Below are positions 33,003 through 36,000 of a stretch of DNA of 64,000 nt, one piece after another (within the stretch, counting starts at the first letter, position 1; each line of letters starts with the position of its first letter). The position numbers and the translations under genes are program-made. The stretch spans positions 7,453-71,452 of the forward strand of contig CACGDO010000001.1 in assembly GCA_902571865.1 (NCBI GenBank), in the 5' to 3' direction. Source of the DNA: an uncultured Alphaproteobacteria bacterium. GTDB lineage: Bacteria; Pseudomonadota; Alphaproteobacteria; HIMB59; GCA-002718135. The notes under the pieces are model-generated. The model did not search any database and was not told where the DNA came from. It was given only the letters and a program-made list of their open reading frames with translations.

Positions 33003-33941
33003 ATGAGTCATTTATTTTATAAACCTGCAAAATCTAGATTACACAGAAGTGAATTGGCGGTTCCAGGCTCTAATCCAAGGATGTTTGAAAAAGCATTAAA
33101 ATCAAATGCCGATTATATTTTTTTAGATTTAGAAGATGCAGTATCTCCAAATGATAAAATTGATGCAAGAAAAAATGTTATAAATGCAATAAAAGAATAC
33201 AATTGGAGAGAAGAAGGTAAAACAATCTCTATAAGAATTAACGGTTTGGATACACACTATATGTATCGTGATGTAATTGAAATTATAGAAGAGGTCGGTG
33301 ATAAGATTGATACATTATTAATTCCAAAAGTAGGCTCATCATCTGATGTATATATGGTTGATTGTATGCTCAATCAAATTGAACAAAATAAAAAATTTAA
33401 TAATAGAATAGGTTTAGAATGTTTAATTGAAACAGCACTAGGAATGTCTAACATCCAATCAATTGCAACATCAAGTTCTAGACTAGAAGCATTACACTTT
33501 GGGGTTGCAGATTATGCTGCAAGTATGCGAGCAAGAACTGTTGTCATTGGAGGTTTAAATCCTGATTACCCTGGTGATCAATGGCATCATGGCTTATCAA
33601 CTTTAGTAATGACCTGTAGATCATATGGCTTAAGAGCAATAGACGGACCCTTTGGAGACTTTAATGACAAACAAGGATATCTTGATGCAGCAAAAAGAGC
33701 GGCAGCAATTGGTTTTGAGGGTAAATGGGCAATACATCCATCGCAAATAGATTTAGCTAATGAAGTTTTTTCTCCACCCAAAGAAGAAATAGATAAAGCA
33801 AAAAGAATATTATTAGAATTAGAAAAAGCAGCAGCTGAAGGAAAGGGCGCTGCTCAGCTTGATGGAAGAATGATCGACGCTGCATCTGCTAGAATGGCTG
33901 AAAATATTGTAAATATAAATAAGTTAATTGAAAGTAAGTAA
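33003..33941 (+). CDS. mcl: L-malyl-CoA/beta-methylmalyl-CoA lyase (HpcH/CitE family)
   Basis: 312 aa. It has LDLEDAVSP, SIRINGLDT..YRDV, DGPFGDFND and GKWAIHPSQIDLANEVF, which match malyl-CoA lyases as I recall them. Confidence 0.8.
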   Translation: MSHLFYKPAKSRLHRSELAVPGSNPRMFEKALKSNADYIFLDLEDAVSPNDKIDARKNVINAIKEYNWREEGKTISIRINGLDTHYMYRDVIEIIEEVGDKIDTLLIPKVGSSSDVYMVDCMLNQIEQNKKFNNRIGLECLIETALGMSNIQSIATSSSRLEALHFGVADYAASMRARTVVIGGLNPDYPGDQWHHGLSTLVMTCRSYGLRAIDGPFGDFNDKQGYLDAAKRAAAIGFEGKWAIHPSQIDLANEVFSPPKEEIDKAKRILLELEKAAAEGKGAAQLDGRMIDAASARMAENIVNINKLIESK

Positions 33942-35101
33942 TGGACATACACGAATATCAAGCAAAAAAAATATTGTCCGATTTTGGAGTTAAAATTCCC
34001 ACTGGTGGTATTGTTTATAGTCCAGAAAATGCAGAAAATAAAGCGAGAGAAATTGGTGGTGTAAAATGGGTTGTAAAAGCGCAAGTTCACTCTGGTGCTA
34101 GAGGTAAAGCGGGAGGAATTATAATATGTAATTCTCCGTTAGAAGTTGCTGATGCAACTGATAAATTGTTAGGTAAAAAATTAATTACAAACCAAACTGG
34201 TCCAGAGGGTAAGATAATAAATAGAATTTATATTGAAGAAGCAACTGATATCAAACATGAATTATATTTAGGTTTAGTGTTTGATAGATCTTCAGAAAGT
34301 ATAATGGTTGTAGCCTCAACAGAAGGTGGAATGAGTGTCGAAGAAATTTCAAAAGAAAAACCTGAAACAATTATACGATCTAAAATTGAAGTAGCAGTTG
34401 GTATTCAACAATTTCAAGCAAGAGAAATAGCTTTTGGTTTAGGAATTGAATCCAAATTGATCTCAAGAGCAGCAAATACAATTATTGGTTGTTATAAAGC
34501 TTTTAGTGAACATGATGCAACAATGGTTGAAGTTAATCCATTAGTTGTATCACACCAAGATGAAATACTAGCATTAGATTGTAAAATGAGTTTTGATAAT
34601 AATGCAATGTTTAGAAGAGATGAAATTGCAGAACTTAGAGATAAAACACAAGAAAATTCAAATGAAGTTTATGCTTCTGACAGAGGAATGAATTATGTAA
34701 GTCTAGATGGGAATATTGGTAATATTATTAATGGTGCAGGCTTAGCAATGGCTTCAATGGATATGATAAAACTTGCTGGTGGTGAACCTGCAAATTTTTT
34801 AGATGTTGGCGGAGGTGCAACACCTGAAAAAATAGTTAAAGCTTTTAAATTAATCTCTATGGACACAAAAGTTAAGGTGATATTAGTTAATATCTTTGCA
34901 GGGATTAACAGATGTGATTGGGTTGCAGAAGGAATTGTTCAAGCTTTATCAAAAATTGAAATTAAACATCCTTTAGTTATACGTTTAGCTGGAACTAACG
35001 TCGAAAAGGGAAATGAAATACTTAAAAAAAGCAATATAAATTACATTGAAGCATCAACTTTAGAAGATGCAGCAAATAAAGCAGTGAAGGCTCTTGGATA
35101 A
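33941..35101 (+). CDS. mtkA: malate--CoA ligase (malate thiokinase) beta subunit, SucC paralogue
   Basis: 386 aa. QQFQAREIAFGLG and NIFAGINRCDWVAEG are MtkA-like rather than SucC-like (GGIVRCD). The gene directly follows mcl, and its ATG shares 1 nt with the mcl stop. Confidence 0.7.
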   Translation: MDIHEYQAKKILSDFGVKIPTGGIVYSPENAENKAREIGGVKWVVKAQVHSGARGKAGGIIICNSPLEVADATDKLLGKKLITNQTGPEGKIINRIYIEEATDIKHELYLGLVFDRSSESIMVVASTEGGMSVEEISKEKPETIIRSKIEVAVGIQQFQAREIAFGLGIESKLISRAANTIIGCYKAFSEHDATMVEVNPLVVSHQDEILALDCKMSFDNNAMFRRDEIAELRDKTQENSNEVYASDRGMNYVSLDGNIGNIINGAGLAMASMDMIKLAGGEPANFLDVGGGATPEKIVKAFKLISMDTKVKVILVNIFAGINRCDWVAEGIVQALSKIEIKHPLVIRLAGTNVEKGNEILKKSNINYIEASTLEDAANKAVKALG

Positions 35102-35103
35102 TC

Positions 35104-36000
35104 ATGTCTATAATCATTCACAAAAATACAAAGATTTTAGTCCAAGGATTCACTGGAAAAATTGGAAGTTTTCATGCTGAAGAAATGATTAAGTATGGCT
35201 CTAACGTTGTTGGCGGGGTAACACCTGGTAAGGGTGGCATGACTCATTTAAATCTTCCTGTTTTTAATACTGTTAAAGAAGCTGTAGATCAAACTGGAGC
35301 ATCAACATCAATTTTATTTGTTCCACCAGCCTTCGCAGCTGACTCAGCAATGGAAGCTGCTGATGCAGGTATTAAGACCTGTGTGGCTATTACTGACGGT
35401 ATTCCTTCTCATGATATGGTTAAAATAAAAAGATACATGAGAAGATATCCAAAAGATAAAAAAATGGGATTAGTAGGTCCAAATTGTGCAGGAATAATTA
35501 GCCCTGGTAAATCTATGTTAGGTATTATGCCTGGTCATATCTACAAAGAAGGTAAAATAGGAATAGTTAGTAGATCTGGCACTTTGGGATATGAAGCTGC
35601 ACAACAACTTAAAGATTTGGAAATTGGTGTTTCAACAAGTGTAGGTATAGGAGGCGATCCAATAAATGGAAGTTCTTTTAGAGATATAATTGAAAAGTTT
35701 GAAAATGATGATGAAACTATTGCAGTTTTAATGATAGGTGAAATAGGTGGTCCACAAGAAGTTGAAGCCGGAAAATTTGCTAAAGAAAATATGAGTAAAC
35801 CGGTAATTGCGTATATAGCAGGACTAACTGCACCAAAAGGTCGTGTGATGGGGCATGCTGGCGCAATTGTTTCTGCTTATGGTGAAAGTGCAATAGAAAA
35901 AGTAGAACTTCTTAAAGAGTGTGGGGTTACAATTTCCAAAAACCCTTCTGTAATGGGTGAAACTGTTAAAAAAGTATTAGTAGAAAATAATTTGAATTAA
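35104..36000 (+). CDS. mtkB: malate--CoA ligase alpha subunit, SucD paralogue
   Basis: 298 aa. It has a CoA-binding GFTGK.G N-terminus, SRSGTLGYE and the phospho-His motif GHAGAIV. Confidence 0.7.
   Translation: MSIIIHKNTKILVQGFTGKIGSFHAEEMIKYGSNVVGGVTPGKGGMTHLNLPVFNTVKEAVDQTGASTSILFVPPAFAADSAMEAADAGIKTCVAITDGIPSHDMVKIKRYMRRYPKDKKMGLVGPNCAGIISPGKSMLGIMPGHIYKEGKIGIVSRSGTLGYEAAQQLKDLEIGVSTSVGIGGDPINGSSFRDIIEKFENDDETIAVLMIGEIGGPQEVEAGKFAKENMSKPVIAYIAGLTAPKGRVMGHAGAIVSAYGESAIEKVELLKECGVTISKNPSVMGETVKKVLVENNLN

Follow-up and report, generated by a model that had tools for sequence, protein, structure and literature searches.

Gene layout of the locus

We analysed a 64,000-nucleotide stretch of DNA (the window) from an uncultured Alphaproteobacteria bacterium of the HIMB59 lineage (GenBank assembly GCA_902571865.1, contig CACGDO010000001.1, positions 7,453 to 71,452 of the forward strand), in which three adjoining genes, mcl, mtkA and mtkB, very probably encode an L-malyl-CoA lyase (Mcl) and the two subunits (MtkA and MtkB) of a malate--CoA ligase, or malate thiokinase. 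This assignment is made by sequence comparison. The assembly used for all genome-wide searches comprises 1.63 Mb on 23 contigs and is 92% complete, with the window on contig C1; the window is very A+T-rich, with 21-34% G+C in 2-kb windows. The trio and its borders are as follows (positions are those of the window).

32947..33002, no strand: A+T-rich spacer of 56 nt 5' of mcl, marking the left edge of the cassette insertion
33003..33941, + strand: mcl, L-malyl-CoA/beta-methylmalyl-CoA lyase of the Mcl1/MCL_R type, CitE-like superfamily (312 aa; putative)
33941..35101, + strand: mtkA, malate--CoA ligase (malate thiokinase) beta subunit (386 aa; putative)
35104..36000, + strand: mtkB, malate--CoA ligase alpha subunit (298 aa; putative)
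36016-36153, + strand: 45-codon open reading frame (ORF) for a small hydrophobic protein, just 3' of mtkB

The final A of the mcl stop codon (TAA, 33939-33941) is also the first base of the mtkA ATG (33941-33943), giving TAATG, and the stop of mtkA ends at 35101, leaving a 2-nt gap before the ATG of mtkB at 35104; both junctions match exactly what had been described in an earlier reading of the window from its letters alone (the sequence-only reading). In the order mcl-mtkA-mtkB the genes make up a self-contained cassette with coupled translation. An Rfam scan of the window found no family near the trio, its sole match being a tRNA at 58362-58434, and promoter and terminator scans around the trio returned nothing above shuffled expectation. 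Contigs assembled from seawater metatranscriptomes in four studies cover all three genes at 95% likeness or above and span both gene junctions. Contigs from RNA libraries cannot show transcript ends, strand or level and may stem from DNA carry-over, and this coverage is consistent with an expressed operon rather than proof of transcription.

Identity of the ligase subunits

The beta subunit scored 622 bits on the NCBIfam model NF010647 (malate--CoA ligase subunit beta, EC 6.2.1.9; curated equivalog cut-off 604) and 519 bits, about 100 fewer, on the SucC model NF001913 (cut-off 370), and the genome's own SucC reached 412.8 bits on NF010647. Scores on NF010647 were bimodal across 61 relatives, 116 genomes of the family and 201 genomes of the SAR11 order, with MtkA-type proteins at 617-652 bits and SucC-type proteins at 526 bits or below. 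Identity values gave the same division: named MtkA proteins share 60-63% identity with the window protein, the genome's own SucC 37.6%. In plasmid records, matches at 57-63% identity (from Ruegeria, Paracoccus aminovorans, Aminobacter, Sinorhizobium, Methylobacterium and Paraburkholderia) were annotated as malate--CoA ligase, and genes annotated as sucC reached at most 52%. A search of 1.8 billion cluster representatives (50% identity) returned one full-length match at 60% (508 bits), the next being a SucC-level protein at 48% and 398 bits.

Phylogeny placed the window beta subunit inside a nine-row MtkA clade in a 52-row tree (Shimodaira-Hasegawa-like approximate likelihood ratio test, SH-aLRT, 99) and inside a 75-row MtkA family in a 94-row tree that included named genomes (SH-aLRT 100). 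Its companions were sequences from Aminobacter, Sinorhizobium, Paracoccus, Ruegeria, Methylobacterium, Hyphomicrobium and Methylococcales, and the genome's own SucC copy on contig C3 clustered with alphaproteobacterial SucC. That copy belongs to a canonical mdh-sucC-sucD-sucA cluster at about 90.7-94.9 kb of C3. The sequence-only reading had named two observations that would speak against a malate thiokinase, namely that these were the only sucCD genes in the genome or that the beta subunit grouped with bona fide SucC; since the canonical sucCD lies on C3 and the beta subunit falls among MtkA sequences, neither was found.

Besides residue 2 (Asp for Asn), the only alignment columns that were invariant in the nine MtkA rows and rare in SucC were G320A, V323N and L327W, and the MtkA residue at each diagnostic column occurred in at most 10% of 43 SucC rows (E. 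coli and window beta numbering coincide over residues 320-327). The window protein has all three residues (A320, N323 and W327), so that the SucC loop IFGGIVRCDL reads IFAGINRCDW; we take this loop to line the succinate/dicarboxylate site of solved succinyl-CoA synthetases. Two motifs that had been quoted from the beta subunit and associated with MtkA rather than SucC were both located, AGINRCDWVAEG beginning at residue 320 and QQFQAREIAF at residue 156. The first contains all three diagnostic columns and is for that reason the actual signature of the MtkA family.

The catalytic residues of both subunits are intact, with Glu197 conserved in beta and the phosphohistidine motif GHAGA (His251) and GEIGG (Glu213) kept in alpha. 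For the alpha subunit NCBIfam holds the generic SucD model alone, on which the window protein scores 426 bits; it shares 66-71% identity with the MtkB proteins of Aminobacter, Paracoccus, Ruegeria and Sinorhizobium meliloti, against 54% with the SucD of its own genome.

Identity of the lyase

The first gene product matches the Pfam families HpcH_HpaI and C-C_Bond_Lyase. Its best relative of solved structure is the Methylobacterium extorquens lyase 5UGR (385 bits, E 1.7e-114), ahead of Rhodobacter sphaeroides 4L9Y (285 bits), Chloroflexus MCL (154 bits) and chains of the CitE or citramalyl-CoA lyase types (at most 117 bits). Its identity to Mcl of the serine cycle is 57-65%, the value being 65% for the Aminobacter aminovorans and S. 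meliloti lyases that are encoded in sga-mcl-mtkAB clusters. In R. sphaeroides MCL_R the Mg2+-binding and catalytic set consists of Glu44, Asp45, Arg76, Glu141, Asp168 and Asp299, and malyl-CoA thioesterases have Glu at the last (lid) position (PMC3832036). By HMMER alignment to 4L9Y together with the sequence itself, the window protein has E44, D45, R78, E143, D170 and D292, and because its lid residue is Asp (D292) rather than Glu it is predicted to be of the lyase type and not a thioesterase.

The Pfam matches, the similarity to 5UGR and the active-site residues together bear out the sequence-only description of an HpcH/CitE-family protein with malyl-CoA-lyase-like features. The protein scored below the cut-offs of the haloarchaeal malyl-CoA lyase model NF041626 (139.5 against 500) and of the RipC/Ccl model NF038242 (188.9 against 375), RipC being its best NCBIfam match; these models describe other subgroups of the superfamily, and the window protein falls in neither.

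Insertion and spread of the cassette

Genomes of the genus share, at 97-99% protein identity, a block that runs SRAP - mcl - mtkA - mtkB - 45-codon membrane gene - histidine phosphatase, a recurrence that argues against a chance arrangement. In the subclade of the genus that carries malate synthase G (glcB), the SRAP and 45-codon genes are immediate neighbours and lack the trio, which is therefore a clean three-gene insertion. The 45-codon protein is 98-100% identical in ten loci of the genus, 87% in one further locus (L008) and 76% in the glcB subclade; it looks like the product of a real, unannotated small membrane-protein gene that forms the right border of the insertion. The gene glcB lies elsewhere, where galT- and sufE-like genes precede it and an aldehyde dehydrogenase gene follows, and for this reason we rejected the possibility that it had replaced the trio in place. 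The same subclade (loci L133-L135, in genomes G036, G020 and G027) also lacks the counterpart of window positions 36208-42727, from the histidine phosphatase to about 42.7 kb, and the stretch from the SRAP gene to the gene at 42730 is a variable island.

The trio is also present in 35 of 201 SAR11-order species genomes sampled (about 17%, scored by MtkA). In three loci from single-amplified genomes of Pelagibacteraceae/Pelagibacterales (L120, L051 and L053) it is 78-88% identical to that of the window, with flanking core genes mostly at 30-65% identity to their closest counterparts in the window genome. Marine MtkA copies form one clade (8 rows, SH-aLRT 100), which lies nearer to alphaproteobacterial MtkA and does not branch by host group. 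These comparisons across genomes show the predicted cassette to have been acquired horizontally and to have spread among streamlined marine Alphaproteobacteria, with the SAR11 order sharing it, and the three Pelagibacterales loci indicate that its exchange between SAR11-order and AEGEAN-169/HIMB59-type bacteria is recent. In those three loci the insertion sits between genes whose homologues adjoin each other at about 220.5-221.8 kb of contig C2 in the window genome.

In one genome of the sister genus (G041) the trio has a different location, flanked by pyc and nth, and the order is mcl-mtkAB-pyc-carbonic anhydrase. The pyc adjacency was considered as a clue to a route from pyruvate and CO2 to glyoxylate and was rejected: the window genome has pyc and dapB as neighbours without the trio, so that the position in G041 is best read as an insertion site and not as an operon. 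Base composition was likewise dismissed as a signal of transfer, because the G+C content of the trio (33.7% against 29% for the genome) is approached by that of the genome's own sucCD (32.2%). In two species of the genus (loci L009 and L010, from G002:C13 and G012:C3), mtkA is about 90% identical to that of the window with mcl and mtkB at 98-99%, which suggests that recombination placed a diverged mtkA allele in the middle of the operon.

Glyoxylate and serine metabolism in the genome

A complete purine/ureide catabolic cluster and the importer genes next to it lie within window positions 1-10898; the cluster contains xdhA and genes for hydroxyisourate hydrolase and PuuE allantoinase, together with the two genes most relevant here.

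4826-5803, + strand: allantoicase (TIGR02961, 354.7 bits, cut-off 277.9)
5800-6294, + strand: ureidoglycolate lyase of the AllA family (137 bits, below equivalog cut-offs)

The source of glyoxylate that had been placed near 5.8 kb was thus recovered, in that an allantoicase above its cut-off adjoins an AllA-family lyase below it; these two enzymes are the genome's recognisable producer of glyoxylate. The genes from xdhA to the lyase together are a predicted pathway from purine to urea plus glyoxylate, 27 kb upstream of the trio; the same purine pathway has been described in SAR11, with glyoxylate as its carbon product (PMC11698098). A 534-aa ORF at 1-1602 precedes xdhA, and an ABC importer encoded 3' of the cluster matches the NCBI 'putative B6' transporter models, all below cut-off, its position suggesting a purine or ureide substrate.

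Enzymes that make or use glyoxylate were then sought in the whole assembly, including the malate synthase and the serine-cycle genes sga and gck whose presence the sequence-only reading had proposed to check. Isocitrate lyase and malate synthases A and G gave no match to TIGR01346, TIGR01344 or TIGR01345. Searches by tblastn (E 1e-8) with serine-cycle proteins of Aminobacter, Paracoccus and Ruegeria found glyA and no sga, gck or ppc, and hydroxypyruvate reductase queries recovered only distant 2-hydroxyacid dehydrogenases at 28-35% identity. Queries with E. coli proteins found no hyi, glxK or GlcF in the genome and no true gcl (best match 32%), and a GlcD-like flavoprotein is encoded that scores below cut-off. 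The best match to the crotonyl-CoA carboxylase/reductase (Ccr) model TIGR01751 was 44 bits against a cut-off of 378.6, and since no Ccr was found the genome has no recognisable ethylmalonyl-CoA pathway that would need beta-methylmalyl-CoA chemistry. A second CitE-like protein was not found in the genome, the other HpcH proteins being aldolases of the HpaI/GarL type. Because aceA, malate synthase, gcl, a serine cycle and an ethylmalonyl-CoA pathway were all not found, no connection from glyoxylate to central metabolism other than the trio can be recognised. Gene content shows the predicted trio to be separate from the enzyme of the tricarboxylic acid cycle and to stand outside any serine cycle, glyoxylate shunt or ethylmalonyl-CoA pathway.

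The class-V aminotransferases of the genome are a cysteine-desulfurase-like protein and a PhnW-like protein (judged by N-terminal sequence). At about 151.0-152.8 kb of G000:C2 (locus L032), the gene for the PhnW-like protein is followed by one for a 210-aa protein that weakly matches E. coli ureidoglycolate lyase (35% over 55 residues).

Serine synthesis is represented in the window by the following gene and its neighbourhood.

16706-17869, + strand: SerC of the TIGR01365/NF002841 type (585.8 bits, cut-off 477)

A short SerA-like dehydrogenase is encoded within the same 16.7-18.8 kb (324 bits, below the cut-off for phosphoglycerate dehydrogenase). With these two genes the phosphorylated serine pathway seems to be present, unlike in classical SAR11, and serine and glycine would not have to come from glyoxylate. 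An argument from glycine auxotrophy was accordingly dropped, as SerC is encoded in the window. The + strand region 14084-18800 also encodes a TrpB-like pyridoxal phosphate enzyme (701 bits, above cut-off) and a 404-aa ORF.

Distribution of the trio and of malate synthase

Among 116 species genomes of the family, MtkA was found in 71 and malate synthase G in 22, with both in a single genome (G276). The latter, 69% complete and from the same genus as the window genome, has the two genes on contigs C47 and C3, with MtkA on a short contig; either it truly carries both or the bin is mixed. Apart from G041, the sister genus has neither the trio nor glcB. A search of 61 relatives yielded no isocitrate lyase. 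Of 36 genomes of the genus, 23 encode allantoicase, in the mtk and glcB subclades alike, whereas it was not found in any of 24 sister-genus genomes. In the SAR11 order we rejected a link between the trio and purine catabolism, since trio and allantoicase (35 and 34 of 201 genomes) occurred together in 4 genomes against 5.9 expected.

Comparison with known systems

The module itself is widespread and already annotated, NCBI naming close relatives 'malate--CoA ligase subunit beta'. The closest known counterparts are the serine-cycle systems of M. extorquens AM1, A. aminovorans and P. aminovorans, to which the window proteins are 57-63% (beta), 66-71% (alpha) and 57-65% (lyase) identical and with which they share the diagnostic beta residues and the lyase active-site residues; M. 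extorquens Mcl has a 15-residue insert near residue 190 that the window Mcl lacks. The gene order is that of Aminobacter and S. meliloti and is common elsewhere within serine-cycle clusters having sga, hpr, gck, ppc and glyA. Unlike those clusters, the window trio stands alone, with no sga, hpr, gck, ppc or glyA adjacent to it.

Stand-alone trios occur in Nitrosomonas, Methylobacter/Methylococcales, Pseudonocardia, Gallionellaceae and Thiodiazotropha (among the loci of this kind are L100, L106, L108, L115, L080 and L092). One has been known since 2004 in Methylococcus capsulatus Bath, where MCA1739-MCA1741 comprise mcl and 'SucCD-2' (PMC517821), and the ligase of this organism is a proven, highly active malate thiokinase (PMC5964204). 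M. capsulatus and Nitrosomonas resemble the window genome in having a stand-alone trio without a complete serine cycle, but these hosts are methanotrophs or ammonia-oxidising autotrophs, whereas the window host is a streamlined marine heterotroph.

Three further systems share part of the chemistry. SucCD has the fold, subunit structure and phosphohistidine mechanism of MtkAB, and the window MtkA is a SucC paralogue with three substitutions in the SucC IFGGIVRCDL loop; it is 48-52% identical to SucC of the alphaproteobacterial and E. coli types and matches solved succinyl-CoA synthetase chains at E 1e-116 to 1e-120. GlcB performs the same net conversion of glyoxylate and acetyl-CoA to malate, but does so as one unrelated enzyme, with irreversible hydrolysis of the thioester and no yield of ATP. 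In the 'apparent malate synthase' of R. sphaeroides, as would be the case here, an Mcl1-type lyase carries out the condensation and a second enzyme, Mcl2, releases malate (PMC3832036). The window genome differs in that no Mcl2-type thioesterase was found in it, so that malate would be released by a CoA ligase able to conserve the energy of the bond.

Direction of flux

Malate thiokinase interconverts malate, ATP and CoA with malyl-CoA, ADP and Pi, malyl-CoA lyase interconverts malyl-CoA with glyoxylate and acetyl-CoA, and both steps are reversible. We propose, at close to even confidence, that the net role of the trio in this genome is assimilatory, turning glyoxylate and acetyl-CoA into malate with formation of ATP. 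Glyoxylate would be released, for example by the purine/ureide pathway upstream; Mcl would condense it with acetyl-CoA to malyl-CoA; and the thiokinase, working in reverse, would free malate and make ATP, so that the job of malate synthase would be done without wasting the thioester bond. This direction is favoured because the genome is predicted to make glyoxylate from ureides, because we found neither another enzyme that would bring glyoxylate into central metabolism nor a recognisable user of glyoxylate derived from malate, because serine and glycine can apparently be made without glyoxylate, and because relatives carry either the trio or the irreversible GlcB and almost never both. The ATP-conserving alternative to malate synthase that the sequence-only reading had put forward therefore fits the genome, from which aceA, aceB, glcB, gcl and serine-cycle genes were not recovered and in whose family glcB almost never accompanies the trio, and the direction itself is still the conjectural part of it. 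The other role that had been suggested, glyoxylate supply for glycine, was weakened by the SerC and SerA-like genes in the window and by the failure to find sga.

Several observations weigh against the assimilatory direction. Every characterised case of Mtk and Mcl, natural or engineered, runs toward cleavage, and in living E. coli cells it cleaves malate, aceB and glcB having had to be removed because their products drive the opposite conversion (PMC5964204). The SAR11 order has genomes with the trio as well as glcB and isocitrate lyase, and the co-occurrence of the trio with allantoicase in that order is no higher than expected. A route from thioester to ATP is near equilibrium, has little driving force and needs more glyoxylate than malate synthase does. 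In the genus, allantoicase was not found in four trio-bearing genomes (86-88% complete), nor was it found in G041, and the mutual exclusion of mtk and glcB follows subclades and may reflect just one or a few changes in evolution. Another sink for glyoxylate may be a GhrA-like reductase (198 bits, below cut-off). The genome is 92% complete, and a malate synthase could lie in the 8% that is missing.

The strongest competing explanation is the classical direction, in which ATP is spent on activating malate, which is then split to acetyl-CoA and glyoxylate, either to supply glyoxylate (for glycine, through some aminotransferase) or to convert a four-carbon unit to two two-carbon units, as the first half of the serine cycle does. 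It is the only direction demonstrated for MtkAB and Mcl (PMC2948502; PMC5964204), and trios of named bacteria (Aminobacter, S. meliloti, Ruegeria, Paracoccus and many further loci) usually adjoin a class-V aminotransferase gene (sga). In the SAR11 order, moreover, the trio cannot simply be a substitute for malate synthase, because both are present there, and the usual internal source of glyoxylate, isocitrate lyase, was detected in none of the 61 relatives. We consider this direction less likely for the window genome than assimilation, but a serious rival to it. No sga orthologue was detected at E 1e-8, SerC and the SerA-like gene would allow serine and glycine to be made from 3-phosphoglycerate, and the glyoxylate formed would have no recognised sink, with no gcl, malate synthase or serine cycle found. 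Cleavage alongside malate synthase, as in the SAR11 case, would amount to an ATP-wasting cycle, and the classical direction leaves the near-exclusive distribution of mtk and glcB unexplained.

Two further explanations concern the substrate and the wider pathway. The trio might act on succinate as a second SucCD, on beta-methylmalyl-CoA together with propionyl-CoA, or on compounds of the citramalyl- or itaconyl-CoA type: lyases of the Mcl1 type have two activities, 5UGR being entered as a malyl-CoA/beta-methylmalyl-CoA lyase, the best NCBIfam match of the lyase is RipC of itaconate degradation (189 bits, far below 375), and the beta subunit scores above the cut-off for SucC as well (519 against 370). 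These substrates are nonetheless improbable, given that the beta subunit scores about 100 bits higher on the MtkA model and has the three residues common to enzymes of serine-cycle clusters, that the lyase is as close to serine-cycle Mcl as stated above and matches 5UGR at 385 bits against at most 117 for CitE types, and that the genome has no detected Ccr and already has a dedicated sucCD. If the trio were a portion of a serine cycle for one-carbon assimilation, or what is left of one, and the host a cryptic methylotroph, this would accord with the status of Mtk and Mcl as signature enzymes of that cycle, with the presence of glyA and with the oxidation of one-carbon compounds by SAR11-type bacteria. 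Such a role is very improbable, since tblastn found no sga, gck or ppc and only the distant 2-hydroxyacid dehydrogenases in place of hydroxypyruvate reductase, and since sga, hpr, gck and ppc do not flank the trio in any marine-clade locus.

Significance

The HIMB59/AEGEAN-169 lineage has been described as being without the glyoxylate bypass, a SAR11 hallmark (PMC3815206; PMC10308909), and neither of these papers mentions malyl-CoA. A literature search found no paper discussing a malyl-CoA/malate thiokinase module in SAR11, Pelagibacter, AEGEAN-169 or HIMB59. In most species of the genus to which the window belongs, enzymes do connect glyoxylate with malate, and the genomes concerned are those without malate synthase G.

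We know of no natural pathway that runs malate thiokinase in the ATP-forming direction. It is a tentative proposal, held at somewhat less than even confidence, that abundant streamlined ocean bacteria, those of the AEGEAN-169/HIMB59 type and a sixth of SAR11 species, use Mcl and Mtk backwards, replacing or supplementing malate synthase. If so, each glyoxylate salvaged from purines or from two-carbon acids of phytoplankton would yield one ATP by substrate-level phosphorylation. Flux toward malate would then be an energy-saving recovery of the carbon skeleton left by the scavenging of purine and ureide nitrogen, and the first natural use of an ATP-forming malate thiokinase. Flux toward glyoxylate would instead give these bacteria an internal source of glyoxylate in place of isocitrate lyase. 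Either direction would alter models of carbon flow for very abundant marine heterotrophs.

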